The notes under the pieces are model-generated. The model was given only the letters and a program-made list of their open reading frames with translations, did not search any database and was not told the DNA's origin. Of a DNA stretch of 64,000 bases, positions 21,616-56,403 are shown in pieces. The DNA comes from Rhodospirillaceae bacterium. GTDB taxonomy: Bacteria; Pseudomonadota; Alphaproteobacteria; Rhodospirillales; Rhodospirillaceae. The DNA lies in assembly GCA_963678075.2 (NCBI GenBank), contig CAXXPK010000005.1, forward strand, positions 148,764 to 212,763, given 5' to 3'. How positions within the stretch are numbered: the stretch's first letter is position 1; each line of letters starts with the position of its first letter. The position numbers were made by a program, and so were the translations under genes.

Positions 21616-21629
21616 ACGGACGGCGGAGC

Positions 21630-32872: not shown

Positions 32873-32912
32873 TCACCGCCCGGACCCCTTCGCGCAGGGC
32901 CAGGGCCACCGC

Positions 32913-33531
32913 CTAGGTGCGGTTGGTGGCGCCGATCTTACGGAAGACGTTGCGCAGGTGCGATTTGAATAGTGATCTCGGTCAGCCCCAGGATCTTGGC
33001 GATTTCCTTGTTGGAGGCACCGCCCACCAGTTGCGTCAGGATTTCGTATTCGCGCTGGGTCAGCACCGACAGCGGCGACCGCTCGTGCGGCAGCGCGGAT
33101 GACGGTTCACCCCCCATTCGCGGTTCGGTGGCCTCGGCGGTCAGCACTTCCGGCGGGTAATAGGGAACGCCGCACAGGATCAGACGCAGGGCATGCATCA
33201 TCGCGGTGCCGTTCAACGACTTCGGCAAGTATCCGGAAACGCCCAGTCGCATGGCTTCCAGGACATTGCCGCGCGTTACCCAGTCGGTGACGATGACGAT
33301 GCGGCAATCGGGGGAGGCGCGGCGCAAACGCAGCACGCCGTCGATGCCGTCCATTCCGGGCATTTTAAGATCCAGCAAGACCAAATCCGGTCGTTCCGCC
33401 GCCATGATTTCATGTGTCGAAGGGTAGTCAAAGGATTCGAGGATGTTCACATCATCGGCGACTTTGGAGACGAAAGGTTTCAGGCCGTCCCGCAATAGCG
33501 CATGATCATCGGCGATCAAGACTTTCATCAT
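32913..33531 (-). pseudogene. NarL/FixJ-type response regulator (REC and LuxR HTH) with a frameshift and an amber codon in the HTH
   Basis: MMKVLIADDHALLRDGL..DLVLLDLKMPGMDG..LTQREYEILTQLVGGASNKEIAKILGLTEITI is intact. The expected KSHLRNVFRKIGATNRT is in the -1 frame (extra T near 32966-32972). It runs into TAG at 32913-32915, where NRTQAVALALREGV is expected. Confidence 0.8.
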
Positions 33532-33673
33532 GCAGTCTCCTTATCGGCTGGTGCACGGAGCGCGCGTCGAAGGCGACGGACTGTATACCGCACCAGAATG
33601 ATACCTTGCCCGGTTTTGGGCAAGTATCTGCTTCGAAAGAATGATGTGGACAAGTTTTGCGCCGCGCCTTCGA

Positions 33674-34093
33674 TCATGCCAGCGATCGTAGGGTTTTGGC
33701 AAGTTCGCGCAGGGATACCGGTTTGCGCAGGATGACGTCGGCGCCGTTTTCCACCTCCGCCAGCGCGATGCGGTCGTGCAGGGGTTGTCCGGTGATGACG
33801 ATGGTGGCGATGTGCGGGTGCTCGGCGGCGACCTCGGCGATCAGTTGAAAGCCGTCGCCGTCGGGCATCTGAAGATCGGTGATCAGAATATCGATGTGGT
33901 GTCGCAACAGGTGGTCGCGGGCCTTCCGGCCGCTGACGGCGGTCAGAACGACGTATCCGGTCCTCTTCAGAAAGGCGGCGAGTTCACCGACGGCCAGGGT
34001 TTCGTCATCGACCACCAGGATGGATAACGGGTCCGTTGACGGTTGCAGCGGTTCGGTGGTTGTGGTGTTTCCTCGCTCAGGTTCAGGCCCCAT
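33674..34093 (-). CDS. Single-domain CheY-like response regulator; 5' end abuts or is replaced by the IS copy A terminus
   Basis: LSILVVDDETLAVGELAAFL..IDILITDLQMPDGDGF..VILRKPVSLRELA. The only in-frame ATG (34093) lies inside the IS terminal repeat (..CCCCATTAA on the plus strand). Confidence 0.6.
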   Translation of the reverse strand: MGPEPERGNTTTTEPLQPSTDPLSILVVDDETLAVGELAAFLKRTGYVVLTAVSGRKARDHLLRHHIDILITDLQMPDGDGFQLIAEVAAEHPHIATIVITGQPLHDRIALAEVENGADVILRKPVSLRELAKTLRSLA

Positions 34094-34622
34094 TAAATTA
34101 TTGTCAGGCAGATCGGCGGCTGATTCCCTCATGGGAGGGAGGACCCCATCCATGAGTGATCTGTTTTGGTTGTCAGAGAGGCAGCTGGCGAAGATTGAGC
34201 CGCATTTCCCGCTATCGCATGGCGTGCCGCAGGTTGATGATCGATGCAACCCACCTGAAAGCTCATCGGACCGCCGCGAGCCTCCATAAAAAGGGGCTCT
34301 TCCCCGATGTATCGGACGCACAAAAGGCGGGCTGAACTCCAAGCTTCATGCGGTTTGCGACGGACAAGGAAGGCCCCTCATCCTGCTGCTCAGCGAAGGA
34401 TCGCTACATGCATCCCGCCAATGCGTCATCGCAAAACCCAGCACGCTTACGACAAAATCCTCTATCGCCAGCGTCATAGGATCGAGAACCTCTTCGCTCG
34501 CCTCAAGGATTGGCGGCGTATCCAGACCCGATATGACCAATGCGCGGATATCTTCTTTGCCGCCGTCATCATCGCGGTACTCCTCCTCTTCTGGATCGAA
34601 CCTTAATGGGTCCTGAGCCTAG
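34076..34622 (+). mobile_element. IS copy A: internally deleted derivative of the IS5-family (IS427-like) element
   Basis: It has the same termini and ORF sequence as copies B and C. It lacks 185 bp between two GGTTGATGATCG repeats (junction 34232-34243) and 121 bp between two CAGCGAGGG repeats (junction ~34391-34399). Confidence 0.9.
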
Positions 34623-34854
34623 CCGACGTCGCTCGGCCATAGATAAGCGCACCACCCGCCATCCCGGCTATACCGCCTCCATTCGCATCCGCAAGCGGAT
34701 CGAGGAAGCCTTTGGCTGGATCAAGACAGTCGCAGGGATGCGGAAAACCAAACTGCGCGGCCTTGATAAGGTGGATTGGGCCTTCGCCTTCTCGGCAGCC
34801 GCCTACAATCTGCTGCGACCACCCAAACTGCTGGCAGGGGAGATGCCCACATGA
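34623..34854 (+). pseudogene. C-terminal fragment of a different DDE transposase (IS5/IS1182-type)
   Basis: RIRKRIEEAFGWIKTVAGMRKTKLRGLDKVDWAFAFSAAAYNLLR is a typical transposase C-terminus. The upstream part is cut off by IS copy A. Confidence 0.75.
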
Positions 34855-35195
34855 AGCGCCCGCCCGCCTTTGCCAAAGTCTTCGAAGGCCGCTGGAGCAT
34901 CGTCGAGATGGACACTTGGCCAGATGATCATCTCGACCTTCTGGAGCCCGCCCACATTACCTTTGGTGGCGCCTCTGATGGCGAACTGGTGTTCGGCGCG
35001 GTCAAGAGATGGCTCGACGTGCGTTACGGGAGCCGGGATGGTGCCGTCTGCGCCGAATTCTCGTGGGAAGGCCACAACGACGCCGATATTGCTTGCGGGA
35101 GAGGATGGGTCGCCCTCGGCACTGCTGGCCGATTGGTTGGCCACATCTACATCCATAGCAGCGATGAATCAGGCTTCGTCTGCGAGCCACTCTGA
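34851..35195 (+). CDS. Hypothetical protein coupled to the transposase fragment (ATGA overlap)
   Basis: MKRPPAFAKVFEGRWSIVEMDTWPDD..EFSWEGHNDADIACGRGW. It resembles a small conserved family seen near IS elements. Function unknown. Confidence 0.55.
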   Translation: MKRPPAFAKVFEGRWSIVEMDTWPDDHLDLLEPAHITFGGASDGELVFGAVKRWLDVRYGSRDGAVCAEFSWEGHNDADIACGRGWVALGTAGRLVGHIYIHSSDESGFVCEPL

Positions 35196-35538
35196 CTTCT
35201 TCAACACCCTGGTAAGTACGGGACCGATTAAAATCGCCGTGACCCACGTTTCGGGTGCGCTCAGCTACGTGCAGAAGAACTTCGTGAAGACCTTGGTCGG
35301 TTCCGCCCTGCACTGGGGCGTGGTGCAGAAGAATTCGTCGCAGATTCACGCGGTGATTCATGCCGGATTGGAAGCCATGCGCGGCATCACGCCGCTGGTT
35401 GCCGGGGAAAGCCAGTTGAAGATCAAGGTGGCGATCGCCCAGGACAGCAAGTGGCTGGTGGTGGCGGCCTATGGCGAATCGGCCTTTCACCCTGAAACCA
35501 ACCATGAACGGATGGGCTTTGGCATCATGCATCTGTGA
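35164..35538 (+). CDS. HutP-family protein (possibly N-terminally truncated)
   Basis: IHAVIHAGLEAMRGIT and WLVVAAYGESAFHPETNHERMGFGIMHL align with B. subtilis HutP SHALYHATMEALHGVT and WIAVSLYGTIGAPIKGLEHETFGVGINHI (from memory). The start is uncertain, and the frame is open back to 34870. Confidence 0.55.
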   Translation: MNQASSASHSDFFNTLVSTGPIKIAVTHVSGALSYVQKNFVKTLVGSALHWGVVQKNSSQIHAVIHAGLEAMRGITPLVAGESQLKIKVAIAQDSKWLVVAAYGESAFHPETNHERMGFGIMHL

Positions 35539-35678
35539 CGGGCGGGTTTGACCGGAGTGTGTACAGCCGTTACGATGCTCTCCGTCGGCGCGCCCCGTGG
35601 TTGGCGATCGCGCCTCGGACCCGGGGGAAGGCCCTTGCTGCCGTTGCTTCTGGGTGGATTCATCTTAGGACGCATGCA

Positions 35679-36200
35679 ATGCCCGTTTTTCGTAAGTTTC
35701 GCACCCTTGTCGCGGGCGGCGTGATCGCGGCGGCGTTGACCGCGGCGGCGCCGTCCGGCGCGTTGGCCGCTTCAGCCAAGGACGGCGACAAGTTCGGCGA
35801 CTGGACCGCCGCATGTTCCGGCGCGCCGAATGCGGCGGCGCCGGTCTGCCATTTGATGCAGATCGTACCGATCACTTCCAAGGACGGCAAGCCGGCTTCC
35901 GTTCTTAAGGCGGCGGTTTTCCACATGTCCGCGAAGGAATACGTGCTGTTCGGTTATTTGCCGCTGGGCTACACGATCGAGCCGGGCGTGAAGGTTTCCG
36001 TCGATGGCGGCAAGGCCTTCCAGATGTATGCGCAACGCTGCGTCCTACAGGGATGCGAAGTTGCATTGAAGCTTGAAGGCGCCTTCCTTGCCCAGATGAA
36101 AAAGGGCAAGGAGGCGAAGATCGAATTCCACATCGGCGATAAGATCGGCACTATCTCGGTGTCGCTGAAGGGCCTGAACGAGGCGCTGTCCAAGTTCTGA
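35679..36200 (+). CDS. Invasion-associated locus B (IalB) family periplasmic protein
   Basis: Signal peptide MPVFRKFRTLVAGGVIAAALTAAAPSGALA, then FGDWTAACS, CHLMQ, QRCVLQGCEV. Confidence 0.8.
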   Translation: MPVFRKFRTLVAGGVIAAALTAAAPSGALAASAKDGDKFGDWTAACSGAPNAAAPVCHLMQIVPITSKDGKPASVLKAAVFHMSAKEYVLFGYLPLGYTIEPGVKVSVDGGKAFQMYAQRCVLQGCEVALKLEGAFLAQMKKGKEAKIEFHIGDKIGTISVSLKGLNEALSKF

Positions 36201-36221
36201 TCGTGCCGTTTGCGACCGAAA

Positions 36222-36254
36222 AGACAAAGGCCCCGGTTTCGGGGCCTTTGTCTT
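36222..36254. terminator. Hairpin terminator between ialB and tRNA-Leu
   Basis: AGACAAAGGCCCCG / CGGGGCCTTTGTCT is a perfect 14-bp stem with a GTTT loop, followed by TTTGG. Confidence 0.75.
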
Positions 36255-36262
36255 TGGTGGCG

Positions 36263-36351
36263 TGGTGCCCGCTGCCGGAGTCGAACCGGCACGCCCGTTA
36301 CCGAGCTACGGATTTTAAGTCCGTTATGTCTACCAATTCCATCAAGCGGGC
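36263..36351 (-). tRNA. tRNA-Leu (anticodon TAA), long variable arm
   Basis: The reverse complement reads GCCCGCTTGATGGAATTGGTAGACATAACGGACTTAAAATCCGT..GGTTCGACTCCGGCAGCGGGCACCA. The anticodon loop is CTTAAAA. Confidence 0.9.
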
Positions 36352-36466
36352 CCCGCCCGCGACCCTAAACGTTTTGGCGGTATCCTGACAAGAGGCGGAC
36401 GGGTGCTTGCGTCCGCATTCCGGCGGGGTTAGGTTCCCTACGCGCATTCTTTCCGGTGGCGGACCG

Positions 36467-37141
36467 ATGATCGAAATCGACGGCGTTACCCAACGGTTCG
36501 GCGACCTGACCGTTCTTGACCTCTTGACCCTGACCCTGACCGAGCGGCGGATCGCGGTGGTCGGCGCCAATGGCTCCGGCAAAAGCACCTTCGCCCGCCT
36601 GCTCAACGGCCTGATCGTTCCCACCGAGGGCGAGGTTCGCGTTGACGGTCTGTCCACCTCCCGCGAGGCCCGCGCGGTGCGGCGCAAGGTGGGGTTCGTC
36701 TTCCAGAACCCCGACAATCAGATCGTCTATCCCCTGGTCGAAGAAGACATCGCCTTCGGTTTAAAGAATCTGAAGCTGCCGAAGCCGGAGATCGCCGCCC
36801 GCGTCGATGCGGTGCTGGCCCGCTATGGCATGGAGGAGCTGCGCCAGCGCTCGGCGCATTTGCTGTCCGGTGGGCAAAAGCAGATGCTGGCGATTTCCTC
36901 GGTTTTGGTGATGGACCCCGCCTATGTCGTCTTCGACGAGCCGACCACGCTGTTGGATTTGCGCAACAAGCGCCGCGTCGCCCGCGCCATTGCCGAACTG
37001 CCGCAGGTCGCGGTGGTGGTCTCTCACGATCTGGAGTTCCTGGCCGATTTCGATCGCGTTCTGGTGTTCGAGGATGGGCGCGTCGTCTGTGACGCGCCCC
37101 CGGCGGCGGCGGTGCCGTTCTATCGCGATCTGATGGCGTAA
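36467..37141 (+). CDS. bioM: ECF transporter ATPase (BioM-type)
   Basis: Motifs [24 protein letters not shown]. It is followed by T and BioY components. The MIEIDG start at 36467 lies inside ORF 36407..37141. Confidence 0.85.
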
Positions 37142-37145
37142 GCCG

Positions 37146-37745
37146 ATGTTCGAAATCCGCCTGAGCCGCATCACTTGGTTGCACCGGGTTCCCGCCGGGG
37201 TCAAGCTGTTGGTTCTGGCGCTGGCTGGCGCCGTGGTGTTTCTGACCGACGATCCGCGCGTCTTGGGCGGTTTTGTCGGCTTTGCCTTGGCGTTGCCTCT
37301 GCTGGCTTGGCTGCCGTTCGGTCCGGTGCTGCGGCAAATTATTCCGGCGGCAATCCTGATCGCGGCGCTGGCGACGTTTCACGTCGCCCTGGGCGATCCC
37401 GGAACCGCCGCCTTGGTGGCGGCGCGCCTGGGTACGGTGATCCTGTTGGCGGTGGCTCTGACCTTGACCACCCGCGCCTCGGCGATGGTGGAGGCATTGG
37501 AAAGAGGCCTGACACCGCTTAGGTTCGTGGGGGTGTCGCCCGCCAAGGTGGGGTTGATGCTGTCGCTGGCGACCCGCTTCATTCCGGTGCTGTTCGCGCT
37601 GACCGCGGAAATCCGCGAGGCGCAGAAGGCTCGAGGGCTGGAAGGTAACGTGTTCGCGGTAGCGATGCCGCTGTTGGTGCGGACGCTGCGGATGGCCGAC
37701 GATCTGGCCGAGGCGATCGCCGCCCGCGCCTACGACGGCGAGTGA
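37146..37745 (+). CDS. bioN: ECF transporter transmembrane (T) component (BioN/CbiQ family)
   Basis: 199-aa membrane protein with the ARG..G-type motif (EIREAQKARGLEG). Confidence 0.8.
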   Translation: MFEIRLSRITWLHRVPAGVKLLVLALAGAVVFLTDDPRVLGGFVGFALALPLLAWLPFGPVLRQIIPAAILIAALATFHVALGDPGTAALVAARLGTVILLAVALTLTTRASAMVEALERGLTPLRFVGVSPAKVGLMLSLATRFIPVLFALTAEIREAQKARGLEGNVFAVAMPLLVRTLRMADDLAEAIAARAYDGE

Positions 37746-37762
37746 GGGGAAGGGAAAGCCGA

Positions 37763-38305
37763 ATGACGGTCAAGGACATGGTCTATGCCGCGCTGTTCGC
37801 GGCGCTGACGGCGGCCCTGGGGCTGTTGCCGATGGTCGTGGTGCCGGGCATTACCGCGCCGGTCACCGTGCAAAGTCTGGGCGTGATGCTCTCGGGTGGG
37901 GTGCCGGGGGCGAAACGTGGCGCCCTGGCGCAGGCGGTGTTCATGGCCCTGGTCGTCGCCGGTCTGCCGTTGCTGGCGGGCGGGCGCGGCGGTATCGGCA
38001 TTTTCATTGGGCCGACCGGCGGTTTCGCGATCGGCTATGTCCTGGGGGCGTTCGTTACCGGCTGGCTGACCGAGCGCCTGTGGGTCGGGTTGAACCTGCC
38101 GCGCGCCGCCCTTGCCTGTGTCGTCGGTGGCATCGGCATGGTCTATCTGCTGGGGATTCCGTGGATGGGCGCGGTGGCGAGGATCGGGCTGGCCAAGGCG
38201 GCGATGGGGTCTCTGGTCTTTCTGCCCGGAGACTTGGTCAAGGCGGTGTTGGCCGCGATGGTGATCGTGGCGGTGAAAAAGGCGTACCCCATCATCAAGC
38301 GCTAG
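37763..38305 (+). CDS. bioY: Biotin transporter S component BioY
   Basis: Motifs PVTVQSLGVMLSGG and GPTGGFAIGYVLGA. The start MTVKDMVY lies inside ORF 37742..38305. Confidence 0.88.
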   Translation: MTVKDMVYAALFAALTAALGLLPMVVVPGITAPVTVQSLGVMLSGGVPGAKRGALAQAVFMALVVAGLPLLAGGRGGIGIFIGPTGGFAIGYVLGAFVTGWLTERLWVGLNLPRAALACVVGGIGMVYLLGIPWMGAVARIGLAKAAMGSLVFLPGDLVKAVLAAMVIVAVKKAYPIIKR

Positions 38306-38420
38306 ATCCCATTTTCAGGCATCGCGGCGTTGGGTTCCGTTTCCCGCGATCCGATACGCCGTCGGGCCAAGGCGGGGTGCGCCTTGGCCCGATCTATTTT
38401 TGGTCAAGGGTGACGGTGGC

Positions 38421-38957
38421 TTACTTCGGCATCGAGCCGAGCTTGACGCCGTCCGGATAGTATTCCCACCCGTCGCGGATTTTGATCTTGGCGTCCCACG
38501 GCAGCTTGTACTTGCCCTCGGCCAGGTCGCGCACCCAGGTCAGGTAATTGGCGTGTTCGCCACCCGGCTTGCCGACATAGGCACGGCAGCCCAGGTTGAA
38601 AATGTTGTTTTCCAGCGCCCAATTTTCGCGGGCCTTATCGACCAGACGCGGGAACAGCTCGGCGGTGACGCTTTCCCACGGATTGCGGTGGCCCTGCTGG
38701 ATGACGTTGCCGTCGTAATTGCAGATCGTGCCCTCGCTGAAGTAATAGAACACCTCGTCATAGCTGGCCAGGTTGACGGCCAGGGTGTACATCAGGTCCA
38801 GACCGGGATATCCAGCCTTGGTGTTGTCGATGGTTCTGCAGATTTGATCGACCTGAACCTTGATGTCCTCTGGGGCGTGAATGACCGGCACCGGATATTG
38901 AATCAATGCGGTCAGCAAAGATTTTTCCCAAGAGCTTACACTTCCAGTGCTGCCCAT
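38421..38957 (-). pseudogene. amiF: Formamidase AmiF (nitrilase superfamily) with the catalytic core deleted in frame
   Basis: [30 protein letters not shown] is joined directly to [47 protein letters not shown]. Compared with Helicobacter AmiF (from memory), about 170 central residues are absent, including the Glu-Lys-Cys triad. Confidence 0.8.
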
Positions 38958-38971
38958 GTCGGATGCTCCGT

Positions 38972-39825
38972 CTAGGCTCAGGACCCATTAAATTATTGTC
39001 AGGCAGATCGGCGGCTGATTCACTCATGGGAGGGAGGACCCCATCCATGAGTGATCTGTTTTGGTTGTCAGAGAGGCAGTTGGCGAAGATCGAGCCGCAT
39101 TTCCCGCTATCGCATGGCGTGCTGCGGGTTGATGATCGGCGAGTGATCAGCGGCATCGTTCATGTGATCCGCAACGGCTTACGGTGGCGAGATGCACCAC
39201 CCGTCTATGGCCCCCACAAAACCCTCTATAATCGTTTCGTTTGCTGGAGCCGACTTGGGGTGTTCAGCCGGATCTTCGCGGCCTTGACGGGAGAGGCTGG
39301 CCCTCCAGACCGGTTGATGATCGATGCAACCCACCTGAAAGCTCATCGGACCGCCGCGAGCCTCTATAAAAAGGGGCTCTTCCCCGATGTATCGGACGCA
39401 CAAAAGGCGGGCTGAACTCCAAGCTTCATGCGATTTGCGACGAACAAGGAAGGCCCCTCATCCTGCTGCTCAGCGAGGGGTAAATGAGCGATTACAAAGG
39501 CGCGATGCTGTTGCTCGACCTATTTCCCAAGGCCAACGTCCTGATCGCCGACAAGGGCTATGACGGTGATCCCCTTCGAGAGGCTTTGACACAGCGAGGG
39601 ATCGCTACATGCATCCCGCCAATGCGTCATCGCAAAACCCAGTACGCTTACGACAAAACCCTCTATCGCCAGCGTCATAGGATCGAGAACCTCTTCGCTC
39701 GCCTCAAGGATTGGCGGCGTATCCACACCCGATATGACCGATGCGCGGATATCTTCTTTGCCGCCGTCATCATCGCGGTACTCCTCCTCTTCTGGATCGA
39801 ACCTTAATGAGTCCTGGGCCTGGAG
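38972..39825 (+). mobile_element. IS copy B: IS5-family (IS427-like) element, full length but mutated
   Basis: Left end CTAGGCTCAGGACCCATTAA. The right end TTAATGAGTCCTGGGCCTGG has two changes from copy C. About 10 substitutions separate it from copy C, all transitions by eye. Confidence 0.9.
39047..39807 (+). pseudogene. IS copy B transposase (orfA, -1 frameshift, orfB) with an ochre codon
   Basis: orfA is MSDLFWLSERQLAKIEPHF..IDATHLKAHRTAASLYKK. The A5G slip site is at 39368-39373. orfB is GALPRCIGRTKGGLNSKLH..SEG, then TAA (39481-39483) where copy C has CAA, then MSDYKGA..ADKGYD..RHRIENLFARLKDWR. Confidence 0.85.
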
Positions 39826-39996
39826 TGTTTCACAAAGCAAGGCCCCCAAAAACACTTAAACAGGAGAGGCTATAGACCTCGTGACCCCAATGCCGTGTCC
39901 TGATGAGCGCCTTGAACAGGGAACATCCTCTTGGATGCACACCGCATTCTGAATACGTGGTTTAGCGTAGACTCCACCGAGCCCTTCCTTTCGTCC

Positions 39997-40908
39997 TCAA
40001 TGTTCGCCCGGCGCCCGCATCGCGCAGGCGGCGGTGGTCCGGTTTTCCACCCCCAGCTTGGTGTAGATTTGTTCCAGGTGCTTATCGACGGTGCGCGGGC
40101 TCAACCCCAGGATCGCCGCGATGTCGCGGTTGGCCTTGCCGTGGGCCAGCCACAGCAGGACCTAGGATTCGCGGGCGGTCAGCTTCAGCCGATGGCGCAG
40201 GACGTCTTCGTCTCGCGCCATGGCGCCTTCGCACAAACGCAGCAGAAATTCGTTCTCTCCCACGCGCCCGACATAGGATGCACGCAGCTGCATGCCGGCG
40301 GGCGTTTCCGGCAGGGCGACCATCGCCCCGTCGGACTGTCCTTCCCCGACGATCCGCCGCAACACCGTTTCCACCGCATCCGGCAAGATCAAGCCGTCGT
40401 TCCCCGATGGAAAGGCCAGGGCCAAGCGTTCGTTCGCCTGTGGTGTCGCCCAGCGCGGATGCCCGTCGCGATCGACCGCCAGCAAATAGCGACCGGTGGC
40501 ATCCAGCGCCATGCGCGCGCTGCGGGTCATGCGCGCATTCGCCAGATGCACGCGAATCCGCGCCAACAGTTCCTGGGTGACGATCGGCTTGGTGACGTAA
40601 TCGACGCCTCCGGCCTCGAACCCCTGCACCACGTGCTCGGTCTTGCTTAGCCCCGTCATGAACACCACCGGCACGTCGGACATTTGCGGCAGCATCTTGA
40701 TTTGACGGCAGGTTTCGAACCCATCCATTTCCGGCATCACCGCATCCATCAAGACGATGTCCGGGGTGATCCGTTCCGCCGAGGCCAACGCCTGCCGTCC
40801 GTCCAAGGCCACCAGAACGGTCAGGCCCTCGCCCTCCAGGGCGTCGGTCAGCATGCTCAACGAACCCGGCATGTCGTCAACCACCAGCACGATGTCGCGC
40901 GATTTCAC
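39997..40908 (-). pseudogene. Response regulator (REC, linker domain, LuxR HTH) interrupted by an amber codon
   Basis: IVLVVDDMPGSLSML..IVLMDAVMPEMDGF runs to LKLTARES, then TAG (40162-40164), then in the same frame VLLWLAHGKANRDIAAILGLSPRTVDKHLEQIYTKLGVENRT. Confidence 0.85.
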
Positions 40909-43726
40909 GATGCGGTCTCCTCGTTCAACAGGAGCTCCAAAGTCACCCCAAGAGCCTTCAAATCGAAATCATCCGTCAACTTGCGCAGGCGTTTGACGGT
41001 TTGGCCGCAAGCGGGGGTCTCGCGGTCGATGCTGTCCAGTTTGGCGCGAATTCCCCGGACATAGCCGATGTCCACCAACGCGCGCAGTTCCTGCAAGTCA
41101 CCGTGAGCAGGGCAAGGGCCAAAGGATGTGGGCGCTGGCGGATCTTCTTCCTCCGCCGTCCAGTCCAGGCCGAGGTGTAGCCCGATTTTCTCCAGCAGTA
41201 CGGTGATTTCGAACGGCTTGACCACGAAATCGTCGAACGCATCGCCGGGGTGATTGCCGGGGCGGTATTCCTGCGCATTGGCGGAAACCATGATGATCGG
41301 TTCGGCGGGGAAGCCTTGTTCTCGCAGCTGTTTCGCGACCTCCCAGCCATTGCGATCCGGCATCGAGATATCCAACAAGAACAAATCCGGTCGGAGCCGC
41401 CGCGCCAGGGAAAGGCAGATTTCTCCGTCTGGAGCGCAGAGCATGCGAAACCCCAGCGGAGACAGCACTTCGCGCAGCAACGACAGGTGGGTGGGGTCGT
41501 CGTCGGCGGCCAACACCGTCAGCCGCCGTCCGCGATAGCCGGTGATGCGCGATGGTGAAAGTCGCGCCGCCTCGGGGTTGATGGTTTCCGACAGCATCAG
41601 GCAGACCCGGAAACGACTGCCCTTGCCGACCTCGCTGACCACCGAAATCTTGCCGCCCAGAATCTCGGTCAGCAGTTTGGTGATGGTCAGCCCCAGGCCC
41701 ATGCCGGTGACCGCGTGGTTGCGTGCTTGCCGCCCGCGTTCGAAGGGTTCGAAGACCCGGTTGATGTCCTCCGGTCCGATACCGATGCCGGTGTCCGCGA
41801 TGTCGAATTCGACCAACTGACTGCTGCGATAGCGGACGGTGAAGGTAATTCCGCCGGTGTCGGTGAATTTCAGGGCGTTGGACAGCAGATTGATCAGAAT
41901 TTGGCGCAGACGCTTGACGTCCGCGTGAACCACGGCGGGCAGTTCTGTCCGATACGGTGTATTCGAAATCGATGCCTTTTTCCCGCGCCTGCAATCGGAA
42001 CATGCCGACGATCTGATCCAGGAATTCCGGGAAGCGGACGTCCTCGATGTTCAAATGCAGGTGTCCGGCCTCGATTTTCGAGATGTCGAGCAAGCCTTCG
42101 ATCAGCCCGGAAAGATGTTCGGAACTGCGGCGAATGACGCCGACGGCGTTGCCGTATTTCCCAGGGAAAGCGGGGTCTCCCTCCAACAGTTGGGCGTATC
42201 CGAAAATTGCGTTCAACGGTGCCCGCAGCTCGTGGCTGATGCCGACGACATAGCGGGTCTTGGCCAGGTTGGCGGCCTCCGCCACTTCCTTGGCTTTCTG
42301 CAATTTCTCGTCGGTCAGTTTGTGGGCTTCGATCTCTTCCATCAACAGGGCGGTCTGGCGCTGGGTTTCCTCTTCCGCCACCCGGTGGCTTTCCCGCGCC
42401 AGGACCAAAAGCCAGGCAACCACGCCGGTGACGATGACCACCGCAGCGAAGACCTTCAGCAGGACGCCGACCAACACATCCTGGGGAATGCCGGAATGCA
42501 TGGCGGTCTGGAAATAGATCAAATACAGCACCGCCGCGATCACCGAGACCGAAAGCATCACCGTGACGACGAATCCCAAAATCGTGGCCGAGGTCTTTTC
42601 CATGATGCTTTCCGGCACCCGCGCCCAGCGCAGAAGGCTGCGCATCTGATCGGACAGGCGGGCGTTTTCCTTGCAGCCGTCATGGCAGCGGGCGTCCAGG
42701 GAACAGCACAGCGAACAGATGTGTCCGCCGTAGGCAGGGCAATACGCCATGTCTTCCGGTTCGAATTCGTATTCGCAAATGCAGCAGCGCACCAAGTCGT
42801 GTCCATCCGTCGGCATCGCCACCGGTGGACGCGCCAGATAATAGCGGCCGCGCGTTCGCGGTGGCGATCAACGGGGCCATGATCAGCGCGACCCCCAGGG
42901 CCAGAAAAACCGCGAAGCCGCGCGCCGTGTCGCCGAACGTGCCGATATGCGCCAGCGTCGCGGCCACCGTGGAGACCGCCATGCTGCCCAAGCCGACCGG
43001 ATTGATGTCGTACAGATAGGCGCGCCGGAATTCGATTCCGGCGGGGCTGAGGCCCAAGGGCTTGTTGATGACCAGATCAGCGAAGATGATTCCCAGCCAC
43101 GATGTGGCCAGAATCGAAAACAGGGTCAGGATCGGTTCCAGCCCTTCGTAGATGCCGAATTCCATCAACAGCAGGGAAATTCCCACGTTGAAGACCAGCC
43201 AGACGACGCGGCCGGGGGGGCTGTGGGTCAGCCGGGAAAAATTCGACCAGGCGATCGACCCGGCATAGGCATTGGTCACGTTGATCTTCACCTGGGCCAG
43301 GACGATGAACGCCCCGACCGCCAGCATCGCCACGGTCGGCCATGGGAATACCAGACCGAACGCCACCAGATACATGTGCGCGGGGTCTCCGGCCTGTTCG
43401 ATTTGCACGCCGCTGTTGTAGGCCAGGACCGCCAAAAACGGACCCCACCAGCAGCTTGAAACCACCCATGATGCCCAGCGATGCGGCCAGATAGCCGATT
43501 CCGGTTGGAAGCCCGAACAACAGGTTCAGCGCGGCGGCCAGGATCACCGCTTCCAGGGCGAAGAAGATTAAGGTGAACGAGGCATAGATCAAGGAGGTAA
43601 TGGTCGAGCCGATGTAACCGAACCCCGCGCAGCCGTGAAGCGCAGGGCGTAATCTTCCAAGGTTTGGTTCGCGACCCACTGATTGTATTGGCGGCGCACG
43701 CGCACGATGCGTTGTTGAATCGTCAT
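40905..43726 (-). pseudogene. Hybrid sensor histidine kinase with an N-terminal NCS1-like permease domain and a Cys-rich linker, multiply frameshifted
   Basis: Segments in different frames are:
- MTIQQRIVRVRRQYNQWVANQTLEDYALRFTA (from ATG 43726)
- AGFGYIGSTITSLIYASF.. (ORF 43077..43679)
- ..QVKINVTNAYAGSIAWSNF.. (ORF 42680..43465)
- RGRYYLARPPVAMPTDGHDLVRCCICEYE..GISHELRAPLNAIFGYAQLL..FEYTVSDR (ORF 41098..42822)
- LPAVVHADVKRLRQILINLLSNALKFT..DTGIGI..GMGLGL, then REC and an Hpt-like tail (ORF 40905..41933). Confidence 0.85.
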
Positions 43727-44122
43727 CGTGCGCCTTTCCCCATCGGCGAAATGTTACCGGAATCGGTCGGGACAGGGGTCGTCATCGTGAGCGGGGCAGG
43801 GTCAAAGCGCATGCTGTTGTCCTCATGAACCCCTCCCGATGATGTTTTCTTGGCCTGCCGAGATCGGCTCTTTCCCGGCATGCATTTCCCAGGCCGCTTT
43901 CAATCACGGCATGAACGCTCCGCGAACAACGCGAAGGCTGCGCGCGCCCGGATCGAACTGGAAAAGATTAGCGTCAATGGAATTCTGGCGAGATACGGAG
44001 AAATACGTATACGACAAACCGCGTATTTTGAATGTCTTGGCATTCTCCGACGATCCGGGGGAAAGACGGTGCCTCGTCACCGGTTTTCCGTGCTCCCGCC
44101 CTCCACGATCGAAGGAGAAGAC

Positions 44123-45347
44123 ATGATGGACCACCACGCCACGGGTTCGCGCCCGTCGAAAACCTGAAAGAACCTACTGGGGGCCGCCCTGGCCGGTCCG
44201 GCGCTGCCGACCGCTACGGTCAACGGCACCGGCCTTGCCGTCACCGACGACACGGTCACGGTGGGGATTCTGCACTCCGTCACCGGCACCATGGCGATTT
44301 CGGAAACCGGCTCGGTACAGGCGGAAAAGCTTGCGATCGAACAGATCAACGCCAAGGGCGGCATCCTGGGCCGCAAGGTGCAATTCATTCAGGAAGACGG
44401 CGGTAGCGATTGGCCGACCTTTGCCGAGAAGTCCAAGAAGTTGCTGGAAAAGGATAAGGTCGCGGCGGTGTTCGGCTGCTGAACCTCGGCCTCGCGCAAG
44501 GCGGTCTTGCCGGTGTTCGAAAAGGACAACGGTCTGCTTTATTACCCGACCTTTTATGAGGGATTGAAATAATCCCCCAACGTCTATTACACCGGCCAGG
44601 AAGCGACGCAGCAGATTCTTGCCGGTATCGACTGGGGGGTCAAGGAGAAGGGCGCCAAGACCTTCTACCTGCTGGGCTCGGACTATATCTGGCCGCGCAC
44701 CTCGAACAAGATCGCCTGCAAGCACATCGAGAAGAACGGCCTGAAGGTGGTCGGCGAGGAATACTTCCCGCTGGGACACATGCAGTTCAACTCGGTGATC
44801 AACAAGATCAAGCTGAAGAAGCCGGATGTGATCTACGCGATCATCGTCGGCGGCAGCAACGTCGCCTTTTACAAGCAGTTGAAGGCGACGGGCATTGATT
44901 TGACCAAGCAGACCCTGCTGACAATTTCGGTGACCGAGGATGAAATCCGCGGCATCGGCGGCGAGAACATCACCGGCGCCTATGCCGCGATGAAGTGTTT
45001 CCAGTCTCTGGCTAACCCCAACAACAAGGCCTTCGTCGAGGCCTTCAAGGCCAAATGGGGCAAGGACATCGTGATCGGCGACGTCACCCAGGCGGCCTAT
45101 CTGGGGCCCTGGTTGTGGAAGGCCGCGGTGGAAAAGGCCGGCAGCTTCGACGTCGATAAGGTGCGTGCCGCCTCGACCGGAATTGAGCTTCAACACCGCG
45201 CCGGAAGGCCATGTCCGCATCCACAAGAACCATCACCTGTGGAGCAAGACCCGCATCGGTCGCGCCAAGGCCGATGGTCAGTACGAGCTCATCTACGAGA
45301 CCAAGGACCTGATGGAGCCCGATCCCTTCCCCAAGGGCTACCAATAA
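44123..45347 (+). pseudogene. urtA: Urea/short-chain amide ABC transporter substrate-binding protein (UrtA/FmdD-like) with three stops and a frameshift
   Basis: RBS GAAGGAGAAG, then ATG at 44123. In-frame TGA at 44165. [23 protein letters not shown], then TGA at 44480 (family has FGCW), then TSASRKAVLPVFE..YEGLK, then TAA at 44570, then SPNVYYTG..LLGSDYIWPRT. An extra C at 45188 precedes FNTAPEGHVRIHKNHHLW. Confidence 0.88.
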
Positions 45348-45579
45348 CCGCATCCGGGTGGGGGCGGAAAACCGCCTCCGCCTTTAGCAGGGTGCGGAAA
45401 AACCATTGGACGGCTGCACTCGGGGTCTTTTCGTCAAGTCTGCGTCGCTTTTTCGCAAGATAATCCCGCTATCTTGCTTCAAACGTTACTGGTCTTGCCG
45501 AAAACCTCCTATCGTTCACTCGCCCAAGCCTTTTTCCGCGCCCTGTTAGCTCTTCAACGCGCCATCAGGGAGTTTCCCC

Positions 45580-46257
45580 ATGTTCGACGGTTACACGGCG
45601 TCCGAACTTGTTTCGATCCTCGCGATGCAGGGTTTCGCGGGTCTGATCCTGTTTTCGGTGTTTCTGCTCATGGCCGCATCCTCCCGCGTTATTCCCAACC
45701 GTTTGACCTATCTGATGGGAACGCGCCCCGAGCGCGTCGCCCTGCTGGCGTTCGCCGTGCTGATCCTGGTGGCCTTCCCCCTGGCGATGGACAGCTTCCG
45801 CCTGAACATCTTCGGCAAGTACATGACCTATGCCTTCGTCGCCGTCGGCCTGGTCCTGTGCTGGGGGATGAGCGGCATTCTGTCGCTGGGCCAGGGCGTG
45901 TTCTTCGGCCTGGGCGGGCACTGCATGGCGATGTTCCTGAAGTTGGAAGCCCCCGACCCGGTCAGCACCTCTATCCAATCGACGCTGGGCATTCCCGACT
46001 TCATGGACTGGAACCAACTGACCGCCTTGTCCTGGTTCTGGCAGCCCTTTCATAGCCTGACCTTCACCATCGTGGCGGTGGTCGTGGTGCCGACGGTCTT
46101 CGCCTTCGTCCTGGGGACCGCCTTGTTCATCGGCGTGGTGTCGGTCTTCCCCCTGGAATTGGCCGGGCTTTACGAACAGCACGTTCGTCCCCGCCTGAAG
46201 CAACTGTCCTGCTTCAAAAAGCCGCTCGCGGCGCTGTCCCCCACCCCCGGAGCATGA
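45580..46257 (+). pseudogene. urtB-urtC deletion chimera (about 30 codons of UrtB, then the front half and tail of UrtC)
   Basis: MFDGYTASELVSILAMQGFAGLILFSVFLLMA (UrtB N-terminus) is joined to ..FRLNIFGKYMTYAFVAVGLVLCWGMSGILSLGQGVFFGLGG..DFMDWN..WFWQPF (UrtC front). That is joined to VSVFPLELAGLY (UrtC-like tail). The total is 225 aa, versus roughly 900 aa expected for the two permeases. Confidence 0.75.
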
Positions 46258-46264
46258 GGCGGCC

Positions 46265-47008
46265 ATGACCAACACCAATTTCGTTCTGGCGGTCGAGGAT
46301 CTGACCGTTTCCTTCGACGGCTTCCGCGCGGTCGATGAGCTGAGCTTTTACGTCGATAGTAATGAATTGCGGGTCGGCATCGGCCCCAACGGCGCGGGCA
46401 AGACCACCGTGCTCGACCTGATCTGCGGCAAGACCAGGGCGACCGGCGGCTCCATCAAGCTCAAGGGCCAGGAACTGACCCAAATGTCGGAGCACGAAAT
46501 CGTCCGCGCCGGGGTCGGGCGGAAATTTCAGACACCGTCGATCTACGAGGACCTGACGGTGTTCGAGAATCTGGAGGTTTCCCTGCCGCGCGGGCGCTCG
46601 GTCCTGGGGGCCTTGGCCTTCCGCCGCGACGCCGACGTGGTGGCGCGGATCGAACGGATCGCCGAGGAGATTTTCCTGGCCGACCACCTGGATCAGCGGG
46701 CGGCGGTCCTCAGCCATGGCCAGAAGCAATGGCTGGAAATCGGCATGCTGCTGATCCAAGAGCCGGAACTGCTGATGCTGGACGAACCGGTAGCGGGAAT
46801 GAGCCTCAGCGAACGGGAAAAGACCGCCGAACTGCTGAAGCGCATCACCTCCGGACGTTCGGTGATCGTGATCGAGCACGACATGCGGTTCGTCAAGCAC
46901 ATCGCTCAGAAGGTCACGGTCCTGCACCAAGGCAAGATCCTGTCCGAGGGTTCCCTGACCAAGGTGCAAAACGATCCACGCGTCATCGAGGTCTATCTTG
47001 GACATTGA
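46265..47008 (+). CDS. urtD: Urea ABC transporter ATP-binding protein UrtD (reads intact)
   Basis: 247 aa. Motifs GPNGAGKTT, GRKFQTPSIYEDLTVFENLE, LSHGQKQWLEIGMLL, LMLDEPVAGM, VIEHDM. Confidence 0.88.
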   Translation: MTNTNFVLAVEDLTVSFDGFRAVDELSFYVDSNELRVGIGPNGAGKTTVLDLICGKTRATGGSIKLKGQELTQMSEHEIVRAGVGRKFQTPSIYEDLTVFENLEVSLPRGRSVLGALAFRRDADVVARIERIAEEIFLADHLDQRAAVLSHGQKQWLEIGMLLIQEPELLMLDEPVAGMSLSEREKTAELLKRITSGRSVIVIEHDMRFVKHIAQKVTVLHQGKILSEGSLTKVQNDPRVIEVYLGH

Positions 47009-47024
47009 GGAAAGGACAGACGCC

Positions 47025-47402
47025 ATGCTTCAGGTCAACGCCCTGTCCGTCGCCTACGGGGAAAGCGACGTCCTGCACGGAGTCGGGTTCTCGGCCGCCG
47101 AGGGCGAGATCGTCGCCATTATGGGACGCAACGGCATGGGGAAAAGCACCCTGATGAAGTCGCTGATCGGCATGATTCCCCATCGCGGCGGCACCATCCA
47201 CCTGGGCGGCGCCGATCTGTCCGCCCTGCCCAGCCACAAACGGGTGGAAAATGGGCTGACCATCGTTGTCTCGGAACGGGTCTTGACCTTCGCCATGAAC
47301 GTGGCCGACCGTTTTCTGGTCATGGAAAACGGCCAGTTCGTCGATGAAGTCACGGCGGCGGAAACCGACGAGGGCCGGGTCGCCGCGTTTCTGTCGGTCT
47401 AG
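47025..47402 (+). pseudogene. urtE: UrtE ATPase with an in-frame internal deletion
   Basis: MLQVNALSVAYGESDVL..GRNGMGKSTL..HKRVENG is joined to LTIVVSERVLTFAMNVADRFLVMENG. The Q-loop, LSGG signature and Walker B are absent (125 aa versus about 230 expected). Confidence 0.75.
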
Positions 47403-47431
47403 AGCACAGCCCGGATGGCTCGGCGGCGGCG

Positions 47432-48109
47432 CTATTCCTGCGCCGCCATCGGGTCGATGTCGCTGGGGGCGTGGCCGAGGTTGCGGAACATCGCCGTGAC
47501 CTTGTCCATGGCCGCGTCCAGGTCGGCGCGGTCGGTGGAGCGGCCGACGATGCAGGTGCCGATGCGTTCTCCCAGTCCGAAGGGATAGCTGCCGATATCG
47601 ACGCCGGGGCGGGTCTTCTGGATCGCGGCCAGGGGTTCGGCGATGTTGCCTTCCCGCGCCTCGGCGGTGACCGCGCGCGACAGCACCGCCGGTCCGCCGC
47701 CTAAGGTATGGGCGATGCCGTCGAACATTGCTTGCATGATGCGCGGCACCCCGGCCATGCGTAAGCGGGCGGGGTTGAGGGTCTCGCCGTAATAGGCGCC
47801 GAGCAGACGCTCGGCGTCCGGGGGGCGGACCAGCGGCACACCGAAGGCGGCGGCGATGCTGGCGGCGGTGATGTCGTCGTGGGTGGGGCCGATGCCGCCG
47901 GTGGTGAAGACATAGGTGAACCGTTCGCGGGCGGCGTTGACGGTGGCGACGATGTCCTCGGTCAGGTCGGGGATGACGTGCGCCTCCCGCACCGGAATGC
48001 CGATCTTGGCCAGCGCCTTGCCGAGGTAGGGAAGGTTTTCGTCCTTGATCCGGCCGGAGAGGATTTCATTGCCGATGACGATGACGCAGGCGGTGGATTG
48101 AACGGTCAT
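47432..48109 (-). CDS. CinA-like molybdopterin-binding (MoCF_biosynth) domain protein, shorter than family norm
   Basis: Motifs VIVIGNEILSGRIKDEN and FTTGGIGPTHDDIT. RLRMA is followed at once by GVPRIMQAMFDG; remembered homologs carry about 27 residues between them. Confidence 0.8.
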   Translation of the reverse strand: MTVQSTACVIVIGNEILSGRIKDENLPYLGKALAKIGIPVREAHVIPDLTEDIVATVNAARERFTYVFTTGGIGPTHDDITAASIAAAFGVPLVRPPDAERLLGAYYGETLNPARLRMAGVPRIMQAMFDGIAHTLGGGPAVLSRAVTAEAREGNIAEPLAAIQKTRPGVDIGSYPFGLGERIGTCIVGRSTDRADLDAAMDKVTAMFRNLGHAPSDIDPMAAQE

Positions 48110-48130
48110 GGCGGGAGCCTTCCTTTCTGT

Positions 48131-48643
48131 TCACAGCGCGTCCTGGATCGTGGTGATCAGCGGCACATCAGCGGGCGGCATCGGGTAGTCCCGCAGCCGG
48201 TTGGGGGCCACCCAGACGAGGTCCTGGCCCTCGCGACCGTGCGGCGTGCCGCGCCAGGATCGGATCATGAACACCGGCATCAGCAGGTGGAATTTCGCAT
48301 AGGCGTGGGAGGCAAAGGACAGCGGTCGCAGACAGCCGGGCCGGGTTTCGATGCCCAGTTCCTCGTCGAGTTTGCGGATCAGGGCCAGTTCCGGCGGTTC
48401 GCCGTCGTTCATCTTGCCGCCCGGGAACTCCCACAGGCCCGCCATCGACTTGCCCTCCGGCCGTTGCGCCAAAAGGACGCGGCGGTCGGGGCCGACCAGG
48501 ACCCCGGCCACCACCAGAACGATGGGCAGGCCGGGGATCAGGGTCGGGCCGTGGGCGTTCCAGCAATCGCGGGGGTCGCCGTCGATGCCTTTCGCCGCGC
48601 TCGCGTCAGGTACGGTAGTCGGCGTTGATGTTGATGTACTCAT
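48131..48643 (-). CDS. mutT: NUDIX hydrolase, MutT-type (8-oxo-dGTP diphosphatase)
   Basis: Nudix box [24 protein letters not shown], preceded by [20 protein letters not shown]. The start is uncertain; the ATG at 48643 overlaps the argJ 3' end by 38 bp. Confidence 0.8.
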
Positions 48644-49841
48644 GGGTCAGATCGCAGGTCCACACGGTTGCCTTGCCCTTGCCGACCCCGACATCCACCG
48701 CGATGTCGATGGAACGGCCCTTGAAGTGCTTGGCCACCGGGGTTTCGTCGTAGCCCGGCACCACCTGCCCGGCGGCGGCGACCGGGATGCCGCCGATCGT
48801 GATCGAGAGCTTGTCGCGGTCGGCTTTTTCCCCCGATTTGCCGACCGCCATCACGACGCGGCCCCAGTTGGCGTCCTCGCCCGCGATCGCGGTCTTGACC
48901 AGCGGCGAGTTGGCGATCGCCAGTCCGATGGTGCGCGCCGCCTTGGCCCCCGCCGCGCCGGTGACGGTGATCGCGACGAACTTGCCGGCGCCCTCGCCGT
49001 CCTTGACGATCTGTTGCGCCAAATCGATCAGCGCCGCGTTCAGGGCCTTCTTAAAGCCCTTCAGTCGCTTGTCGGCGGCGGTCTTGACCGTTTTGTGGGG
49101 GGCGGCGCGGGTGGCGAACAGCAGCAGGGTGTCGGAGGTCGAGGTGTCGCTGTCCACGGTGATGCTGTTGAAGGATTTGTCCGTGCCGTCCTTCAGCAGG
49201 GACTGCAACACCTCGGACGGCAGGTTGGCGTCGGTGAAGACGAAGGCTAACATCGTCGCCATGTCGGGGGCGATCATGCCCGAGCCCTTGGCAAAGCCGG
49301 AAATCGTCACCGGCACGCCGTCGATTTCGACGGTGGCGGTGGCGGCCTTGGCGAAGGTGTCGGTGGTCATCACGGCGCGGGCCGCCGCTTCCCAGGCGTT
49401 GGCGGTCAGGTCTTTTTGCGCCTGCGGCAGAATGGCGGTGATCTTGGAGGCATCCAGCGGCACGCCGATGGTGCCGGTGGAAGCGATGAAGACCTCCGAC
49501 GCCTTGCAGCCGAACAGCTTCGCGGCGGCGGCGGCGGTTTCCTCGACCGCGGAGACGCCCAGTTTCCCGGTGAAGGCGTTGGCGTTGCCGGAATTCACCA
49601 CGACGACACGGGCGCTGCCGCCGGTCAGCGCGTCGCGGCACCAATCGACCGGCGCGGAACATGTCTTGGAGCGGGTGAAGACGCCCGCCACCGTGCTTTT
49701 CGGGGGCAGTTTGGCGACCATCAGGTCGGGCCGCCCGGCATAGCGTAGCCCGGTGTTGCCGGTGGCGAAACGCACCCCGGCGACCGGGGAAAGCGCCGGG
49801 AACTCAGCGGGAGCGAAGGGGGAAACGTAGACTTTGGTCAT
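48606..49841 (-). CDS. argJ: Bifunctional glutamate N-acetyltransferase / amino-acid acetyltransferase ArgJ
   Basis: Motifs [45 protein letters not shown]. The start [11 protein letters not shown] at 49841 lies inside ORF 48606..49895. Confidence 0.95.
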
Positions 49842-49907
49842 CGAGGCTCTCCTCGGGCAGGTGGCGGAAGCGGCCTTCGGAAACGGCGTTTCCAAAGGCC
49901 GGGTCGG

Positions 49908-50753
49908 TCAGGGTTTTGCCGGCAATCCGTCCAGCGCGAAACGTTTGATTTGCGCGCCTTGGCGCAGGCCCTTGACGATTTCCATGGCGACTTCGCCGGC
50001 GGCCTTGTCATGCAGTTGCGGCTTCAGGTCCTCGAAACTGGGGGCCTTGGCGGGGCGCCGGCCCTCGACCTTGATGACGTGCCAGCCGAACTGGGTCTTC
50101 ACCGGTTCGGTGCTGAAGGCGTCGATCTTCAGGGCGAAGGCGGCGTCGGCGAAGGGCTTCACCATGTCCGCCTGCTTGAAGTAGCCCAGATCGCCGCCGC
50201 CGCTTGCCGAGGGGCCGGTGGACTTTTCCTTGGCCAGGGCCGCGAAGTCCTTGCCCGATTTCAAGGCCTCGATCACCGCGCGGGCATCCTTTTCGGTTTC
50301 AAGAAGGATGTGGCGGGCGTGGATTTCCTCCTGCGGCGGGTTTTCCTTCAGCCAAGCGCTGTAATCGGCCCTCAACTGCGCCTTGGTGATCTTTTTGTCG
50401 ATCTCGCGGGTCAGATAGACGGTGCGCAGGATCTGCCGCTCCGCCGCCTTGATGTTGCGCTGCACCATCGGGTCCGTATCCAGGCCGGACTTGCGGGCTT
50501 GCGCGGCGACCAGGGCCAGATCGATGACGTTGTCGAGAAGCGCGTCGTAGACATGCTCCAACGGCACATCCTTCAAATAGGGGACGGCGGCGCGAATCTG
50601 CTCCAGCGCGGAGCGGTGGATATCCTCGCCGTTGACGGTGGCGACCACCGGGTCGTCGTCGGCTCGGGCCGACGGCGCGGCGGCAAGGCAAAGGGCGGCA
50701 ACGACCGCGAAACCGGCGGCCCGGATGGTGAAGGCGGAAAAAAGGGCGCTCAT
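49908..50753 (-). CDS. Periplasmic parvulin-type peptidyl-prolyl isomerase (SurA/PrsA-like)
   Basis: Signal peptide MSALFSAFTIRAAGFAVVAALCLAAAPSARA. The rotamase block is HARHILL..GGDLGYF..MVKPFADAAF..QFGWHVIKVE. Confidence 0.88.
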   Translation of the reverse strand: MSALFSAFTIRAAGFAVVAALCLAAAPSARADDDPVVATVNGEDIHRSALEQIRAAVPYLKDVPLEHVYDALLDNVIDLALVAAQARKSGLDTDPMVQRNIKAAERQILRTVYLTREIDKKITKAQLRADYSAWLKENPPQEEIHARHILLETEKDARAVIEALKSGKDFAALAKEKSTGPSASGGGDLGYFKQADMVKPFADAAFALKIDAFSTEPVKTQFGWHVIKVEGRRPAKAPSFEDLKPQLHDKAAGEVAMEIVKGLRQGAQIKRFALDGLPAKP

Positions 50754-50950
50754 GGATGGACAACCTGAGGGGGATGAAACGATCGAGCCCGATCCGGCGG
50801 AGCAAAACCCTGCCACGCACGCGGGCCTTCGCATATATCCGACGCTTTTGGATCGCGCACAAGGGGCCGCCTGCGCGCTTCATCGGGAATTTTCGATAAC
50901 GCGCGCAGGAACCGCCGACAAGGGGCGTTTTCACCCCTGGTTCGGCGGTG

Positions 50951-51889
50951 TCACTTGATGGTGTCGCGTCGCTGTGGGCGCGACGGCGTCGCTTCCGAGG
51001 CTCGCACCGCGATCGGCACCGCGATGTCAGCGACGAACTGGGCGATGCCGGGTTCCGCTTGGCGTTCCTGTCGTGGATTACCGCGCACCACCATCACCGC
51101 GCCGCGGTCGGAGTCGTTGCGCGCGCCGTCCTGATTGATGTCGGGCAGGGCCGAGGCCCGGGCCGCCTGTCGGTCGGCCTAGGCAGCGGCGTCCTGTGGC
51201 GACAGCCGTCCCGAGAAACGGTCAAGGGCACTGGCGCCGTTCGTACCCGTGGTGGTGGCGGCGCCGGAACCGGTGAAGAACAGGCCACTGTTGACCGCCG
51301 ACAAGTCGATGGCATTGCCCGCCGCGTCGGTTCCCAGACTGCCCGGGTCCGACAAAAGCGCGCCGACCGGGTCGGAGGCGGCGCCGTATTCCAGCGAGGC
51401 GGAGCCGAAATCGACCGAAACGTCGTCCGGGCTTTCCACGTCTTCCTTGATCGCCATCTTCACTTCCATCTGGCGGACAATGAAGTTGAGCTCTTGGCGG
51501 ACCTGGGTGTCGATGGCCGGCGGCTCGACGGTTCCGGCCAGTCGCCGGACCTCATTACGCAGAACCTCGATCACCTTGTGACCGGAGATGTTGGTCTGGG
51601 TGTTGTTGAGGCCATAGACCGACATCAGGCGGTTCAGCCTGGTCGTCACCTCGGAGATGGTGTCGTCGGCGGACGACGCGACCGCCTGCTGGAAACGAGA
51701 GAGCGAATCGCCGGTTTCCAGGGCGGCTCCCGCCATCAATTCCTGGGCGGCATCGGACAATACGACATTGTCACCGGGGAACACCGCTTGCGGCGTTTGC
51801 GCGGCGGCGCCGGCATGAGCCTGCAAAACCCGAGCCTGGGTTCACTCGGTGATTTCCTGGGCGCGTAGCGAAGTCGTGACATCGGACAT
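50951..51889 (-). pseudogene. Unknown 313-codon gene with a strong RBS, interrupted by TGA and TAG
   Basis: AGGAGGAAACC, then ATG at 51889. [15 protein letters not shown], then TGA (51842-51844), then TQARVLQAHAG..RLSPQDAAA, then TAG (51179-51181), then ADRQAARASALPDINQDGARNDSD.. to TGA at 50951. All segments are in one frame. Confidence 0.6.
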
Positions 51890-56367: not shown

Positions 56368-56403
56368 GCCCCGGCGGGTCCCCGGGCAGTGCTGGGCCTG
56401 ACT

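Follow-up and report, generated by a model that had tools for sequence, protein, structure and literature searches.

The 64-kb stretch analysed here (contig CAXXPK010000005.1 of assembly GCA_963678075.2, positions 148,764 to 212,763; hereafter the window) comes from the chromosome of a Rhodospirillales bacterium and encodes SecA, Ffh, FtsY, methylmalonyl-CoA mutase with MeaB, CobS/CobT, AroB/AroK, PepA and Sua5. Three genes on its minus strand are broken by a premature amber codon: a NarL/FixJ-type response regulator (RR1), a response regulator with a LuxR-type helix-turn-helix domain (RR2) and a conserved hypothetical gene upstream of secA. All three ambers lie in the hexamer CCTAGG. In Escherichia coli, deamination of 5-methylcytosine (5mC) at Dcm sites creates mutation hotspots, seen as lacI ambers at CCAGG, and the original prediction attributed the three CCTAGG ambers to the same process. 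By comparison with homologous sequences, we find that one amber arose by the C>T change at CCAGG that this process would cause, that a second arose from GAG by a transversion and that the third probably derives from CAG, while CCWGG sites (W being A or T) are not a measurable hotspot. With a probability of about 0.78, the three ambers reflect ordinary pseudogene decay dominated by G:C>A:T changes and carry no methylation signature.

The nearest named genome is that of Oleispirillum naphthae Y-M2 (SecA identity 86%), with which gene order is shared from 47.4 to 61.6 kb of the window. The stretch from ~33 to 47.4 kb has a lower GC content (0.61) and no synteny with O. naphthae; it carries IS5-like insertion sequence (IS) elements of 851 bp and a degraded operon cluster comprising RR2, a hybrid histidine kinase and an amide/urea-type ATP-binding cassette (ABC) transporter. 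A ~97% identical sister genome is available as ENA assembly ERZ25042269, of which about 37 kb entered the analysis: contig L244 was compared with 23.5–38.4 kb of the window and contig L241 with 48.2–63.4 kb, so that 27.2 kb of the window could be aligned at 96.3–98.6% identity, with few indels. The window retains intact housekeeping genes, among them secA, ffh, pepA and the methylmalonyl-CoA mutase gene. An automatic search for in-frame premature stops based on GC content at third codon positions was too noisy in GC-rich DNA, and homology was used instead; likewise, tblastx of the degraded region gave uninformative matches in all six frames and was replaced by tblastn with homologue proteins. 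The resulting features are collected in Table 1.

Table 1 Pseudogenes, premature stop codons and IS copies in the window, with the basis or character of each call.
Feature	Position	Strand	Change	Remarks
RR1, NarL/FixJ-type response regulator pseudogene	32820–33531	−		Convergent with glcD; 1-bp insertion and amber
Amber 1 (RR1)	32913–32915	−	CAG>TAG	C>T at inner C of CCAGG; derived in the window lineage (comparison with L244, L242, L243)
IS copy A	34079–34622			851-bp element, internally deleted; right end at CTAG
IS copy B	38971–39821			IS5-family-like, 851 bp
Stop in IS copy B	39481		CAA>TAA	C>T; copy C has CAA
RR2, response regulator pseudogene with LuxR-type helix-turn-helix	39997–40908	−		Part of degraded hybrid-kinase/regulator and amide/urea ABC transporter cluster
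Amber 2 (RR2)	40162–40164	−	GAG>TAG	G>T transversion in CCGAGG, no CCWGG site (homologue comparison)
Hybrid histidine kinase pseudogene	40908–43726	−		tblastn with L003 and L246 homologues; Pfam
UrtA/FmdD-like periplasmic binding protein pseudogene	44123–45463	+		Three stops and a C-terminal frameshift
Stop in binding protein	44165		TGG>TGA	G>A
Stop in binding protein	44480		TGG>TGA	G>A
Stop in binding protein	44570		GAA>TAA	G>T
Conserved hypothetical gene upstream of secA, pseudogene	50954–51889	−		Syntenic with O. naphthae
Amber 3 (gene upstream of secA)	51179–51181	−	Probably CAG>TAG (GCC CAG GCC)	Five-sequence nucleotide alignment; mutation type not assigned
Stop in gene upstream of secA	51842–51844		CGA>TGA	C>T at CpG; sister has CGA
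IS copy C	55515–56365			CTAG target duplication at flanks; right end makes the sixth CCTAGG (56363–56368)

Ancestral codons at the three amber sites

The deamination reading predicts that the orthologous codon is CAG at each site. This holds at site 1, where RR1 reads NRT*AVALALREGV across the amber. A scan of species-representative genomes for RR1 orthologues gave no hit above 37% identity, and the orthologues were instead obtained by protein search, from a cluster look-up and by retrieving contigs. The window's ACC TAG GCG stands against ACC CAG GCG both in the intact sister orthologue (238 amino acids, L244) and in two outgroup orthologues (L242 and L243), which are 86–87% identical at the protein level and have the same glcD neighbour; the change is thus CCCAGG to CCTAGG. 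RR1 also carries a lesion absent from the original prediction, a 1-bp insertion (T at 32969) by which the gene is out of frame ahead of the TAG, and five changes at conserved residues. Six of its seven window-derived substitutions are G:C>A:T, and the amber is the only one of these in CCWGG, the other five lying outside such sites. Adjoining RR1 is a second receiver-domain gene (33674–34342, minus strand), one continuous open reading frame (ORF) of 222 codons in the window, the N-terminal half of which overlaps the degenerate IS copy A; its sister counterpart (L244 9400–9858) is split by a CAG>TAG change.

At site 2 the prediction fails. RR2 reads LTARES*VLLWLA across the amber, and the codon is Glu in all 77 homologues: 74 from species-representative genomes (55–61% identity; 57 GAG and 17 GAA) and the three closest (L245, L246 and L247; 79–83% identity), which read TCC GAG GTG or GCG GAG GTC. 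The match to L246 is nearly base-for-base, with CGC GAA TCC GAG GTG CTG CTG TGG there and CGC GAA TCC TAG GTC CTG CTG TGG in the window. Given that the amber is a G>T transversion, cytosine (5mC) deamination cannot be its cause.

RR2 belongs to a cluster that has degraded in place (39997–47402) and that further comprises the hybrid histidine kinase, the UrtA/FmdD-like binding protein, permeases and two ATPases. The kinase gene has changed frame at least four times and lost two internal segments, its retained pieces being free of nonsense codons. The ancestral codons at the three stops of the binding protein were read from a ~90% identical homologue, and the permease and ATPase genes downstream of it are degraded to about 47.4 kb. 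An intact arrangement of the cluster is found in L246, a metagenome contig from the Joint Genome Institute (JGI), where it is followed by a CN_hydrolase gene of the amidase/nitrilase type.

At site 3 the ancestral codon was probably CAG, as judged from an indel-prone alignment. The gene upstream of secA reads QDAAA*ADRQ, and its conserved C-terminal domain runs on in frame past the stop. The residue sits in a variable, indel-prone, low-complexity linker rich in Ala and Gln; in the sister genome the site has been removed by a ~260-bp deletion, and in the BLAST alignment with O. naphthae the TAG lies opposite a gap. In a nucleotide alignment of five sequences, CAG stands under the TAG in three of the four relatives and CCG in the fourth, the window's GCC TAG GCC GAC corresponding for example to GCG CAG GCC GAC in L249.

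Intact copies of the same gene occur in O. naphthae and in about 15 metagenomic relatives, and it has been inactivated independently in the two near-identical genomes, by TGA and TAG in the window and by the ~260-bp deletion and a CAG>TAG of its own in the sister (L241 10001–10900). This is a parallel loss of a family-conserved hypothetical gene.

Mutation spectrum and CCWGG sites

Beyond the ambers, all the further premature stops listed in the original prediction (TGA at 44165, 44480 and 51842, TAA at 44570 and, in IS copy B, at 39481) are present. Each is formally reachable by a single G:C>A:T transition, as had been claimed, but the homologue codon at 44570 is GAA, which makes that stop a G>T transversion. 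Five of the eight nonsense codons are thus G:C>A:T, two are G>T and one is left unassigned, and a single proven event falls on the inner C of a CCWGG site. The changes that made stops mirror the background spectrum and favour no single motif.

The hypermutability of CCWGG was assessed in the alignment of window and sister, in which 27,244 aligned positions include 284 Dcm-target positions when CCWGG present in either genome is counted. The two genomes differ at 508 positions, with 403 transitions; among the transversions, the G<>T/C<>A class is the most frequent. Transitions affect 5 of the 284 inner C/G positions of CCWGG (1.8%) and 403 of 17,841 C/G positions overall (2.3%), and no excess appears in any class when non-coding sites and the three codon positions are taken separately. 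Of the five CCWGG transitions, no more than three are window-derived, compared with about ten predicted by a 5-fold hotspot. Hence, inner CCWGG cytosines do not show a higher C>T rate than other cytosines. The sister's own two ambers are both CAG>TAG (GCC-TAG-TTC and CTT-TAG-ATG), and neither is a CCWGG site. Across the alignment, substitutions are strongly asymmetric: the window has C/G where the sister has T/A 271 times and the reverse 132 times. Transition rates are 1.75%, 1.37% and 2.48% at codon positions 1, 2 and 3, a pattern suggestive of weak purifying selection in one lineage or in both.

Sequence composition gives the same picture. CCWGG is 2-fold above the expectation from dinucleotide shuffles, but this apparent enrichment is an effect of codon usage: synonymous-codon shuffles within genes predict 202 ± 10 sites, with 179 observed. 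CCWGG thus lies a little under the codon-aware null, but control motifs lie further below it, and there is no motif-specific depletion. In enterobacteria the scarcity of CTAG is attributed to very-short-patch (VSP) repair. CTAG is likewise rare in the window, with 22 occurrences in 64 kb, four of them supplied by IS ends, but the synonymous-codon shuffles reproduce the count in window genes (10.2 expected, 8 observed), so codon usage suffices and VSP repair is not needed. The frequencies of both motifs fit the codon-usage null, so that composition bears no mark of either Dcm or VSP activity. Neither a C5-methyltransferase nor a Vsr domain appeared among the window ORFs scanned, and the genes called on L241 and L244 include none either.

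The original prediction counted about six CCTAGG hexamers by eye, and the exact number is six (7873, 18134, 32912, 40161, 51178 and 56363), three of them being the in-frame premature ambers on the minus strand. Two others read C-CTA-GG (Leu-Gly) within long ORFs and that at 56363 is formed by the right end and CTAG target duplication of IS copy C; none of these makes a stop. With 4.5 expected from dinucleotide-preserving shuffles, the count itself is unremarkable. 'Three of six' moreover uses an invalid denominator, because codon usage nearly forbids CTAG in working genes here, so that new stops and IS ends are over-represented among the surviving CCTAGG. Among codons of window genes that are one substitution from TAG, the context with CC before and G after (CC_G) is the commonest; it holds 8.8% of potential ambers under weighting by an approximate mutation spectrum, with 6.7% for CAG codons and 13.9% for GAG codons.

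Insertion sequences and neighbouring genes

The full IS copies B and C are 98.9% identical. The element ends in GCTCAGGAC...GTCCTGAGC, with CTAG flanks in copy C and CTAG at the right end of copy A, and thus shows the terminal inverted repeats and CTAG (YTAR) target duplication by which IS5-family elements are recognized. At the corresponding site, the sister genome has a DUF772 transposase gene; Pfam did not confirm the transposase family of the window's own copies. The window's repeat also occurs at other places in the sister genome, for example inside a NUDIX gene. The window has an intact MutT-like NUDIX_4 gene (48131–48646), whereas the reading frame of its sister counterpart (L241 12986–13705) meets an IS end at about residue 134, with rpoD next to it in place of the window's neighbours.

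Elsewhere, a XerC/D-like tyrosine recombinase gene (21504–22529, plus strand) lies between housekeeping genes, as does, among such genes, a stand-alone HNH endonuclease gene (23748–24305, plus strand) that is kept in the sister genome.

Pseudogene decay as the probable explanation, and its alternatives

RR1, RR2 with the kinase, the binding protein and the gene upstream of secA all have intact orthologues elsewhere and carry several independent disabling lesions each; the pseudogenes here are old and multiply struck. The three TAGs would then be independent inactivating substitutions in genes already freed from selection, in a relative of O. naphthae in which an accessory region and some core genes are decaying. 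Mutations would arise above all as G:C>A:T transitions and less often as G:C>T:A transversions, with indels and IS activity adding to them. On this account CAG became TAG at site 1, as orthologues show, GAG became TAG at site 2, as homologues show, and CAG probably became TAG at site 3. The shared hexamer would need no methylation-specific process, because an NCC codon (Ala GCC, Thr ACC or Ser TCC), an amber-prone codon and a G-starting codon (Ala, Val or Gly) are the commonest succession in GC-rich coding sequence such as this. The whole resembles generic pseudogene decay, with its bias to G:C>A:T, relaxed selection and IS expansion: several lesions per gene, a transition-dominated skew from GC to AT, IS copies, independent loss of one gene in the sister and a rate of change at second codon positions that is high relative to third positions. 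The sole oddity is that three ambers share one hexamer.

That oddity is the first of several points that weigh against ordinary decay. The probability that all three ambers fall in CCTAGG is about 7e-4, and that of three ambers sharing any context about 1.5e-3, both nominal and post hoc, as the pattern was picked after inspection of the data; the coincidence is thus nominally unusual but describes a post hoc pattern. If site 3 was CAG, both CAG>TAG events of the window lineage hit C_CAG_G, a context holding only 15% of CAG codons (p about 0.02). The hypermutability test has low power against a weak (under 2-fold) hotspot and pools two lineages that possibly differ in methyltransferase content, and genome coverage of this strain is limited to the 64 kb of the window.

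The strongest alternative, which we nevertheless consider unlikely, is that a Dcm-like CCWGG cytosine-5 methyltransferase and subsequent 5mC deamination made sites 1 and 3, with site 2 an unrelated transversion. The change at site 1, at exactly the inner C, is of the kind seen in the lacI ambers, site 3 probably changed likewise from GCC CAG GCC, and the bias towards C_CAG_G just described fits; one further difference between window and sister, at 58784, is CTAGG versus CCAGG. However, the resemblance to the Dcm hotspots ends there. The inner cytosines are not elevated in the comparison with the sister, where a hotspot of 5-fold or more should have been visible, the sister's CAG>TAG ambers fall outside CCWGG, CCWGG shows no motif-specific depletion and CTAG no depletion at all, the ORFs scanned held no candidate enzyme, and the 5' C that turns CTAGG into CCTAGG lies outside the Dcm mechanism. 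Because two different mutation types made the hexamer, it cannot be the signature of one mechanism, and as the methylation model leaves site 2 out, it does not account for the shared hexamer. The original claim is partly supported: the C>T change that it predicts at CCAGG is proven at site 1, probable at site 3 and refuted at site 2. A modest contribution of 5mC deamination at sites 1 and 3 is unlikely, and nothing beyond these two sites supports it.

Far less probable is a motif-directed process (a lesion, modification or repair error) that turns the third base of CCNAGG into T whatever its origin. Improbable candidates of this kind are a hotspot of lesions or abasic sites at which bypass follows the 'A rule' and, in a long-read assembly, systematic miscalling of the consensus at a modified motif of the CCNNGG type. 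Such a process would account for two ancestral bases (C at site 1, G at site 2) giving the same product and for the three-of-three coincidence, but the near-expected number of CCTAGG speaks against bulk production, no extended palindrome at any site backs template switching, intact housekeeping genes and few indels relative to the sister weigh against an error-rich assembly, and all three ambers sit in genes with further independent lesions. An origin by quasi-palindrome or template switching was rejected on its own account, given that no inverted repeat extends past the hexamer except for one additional G·C pair at site 3. There is next to no chance that the premature CTAGs are footprints of the CTAG-targeting IS5-like element: it does duplicate CTAG, and its ends make up part of the window's CTAGs including the CCTAGG at 56363, but sites 1 and 2 have the same length as their homologues and differ by a single base, with no duplicated or extra bases, which rules out this origin for both. 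Reassignment of TAG as a sense codon was also discarded, as ordinary genes end in TAG here, for example cobT at 11103 and cobS at 12984.

A methodological by-product of this work is the near-identical sister genome ERZ25042269, which can polarise most lesions of the window. Were the Dcm-type reading true, the three pseudogenes would reveal, from sequence alone, an active CCWGG methylome in a Rhodospirillales lineage that is so far unstudied. The result that remains for this organism is routine pseudogene decay, a known phenomenon.

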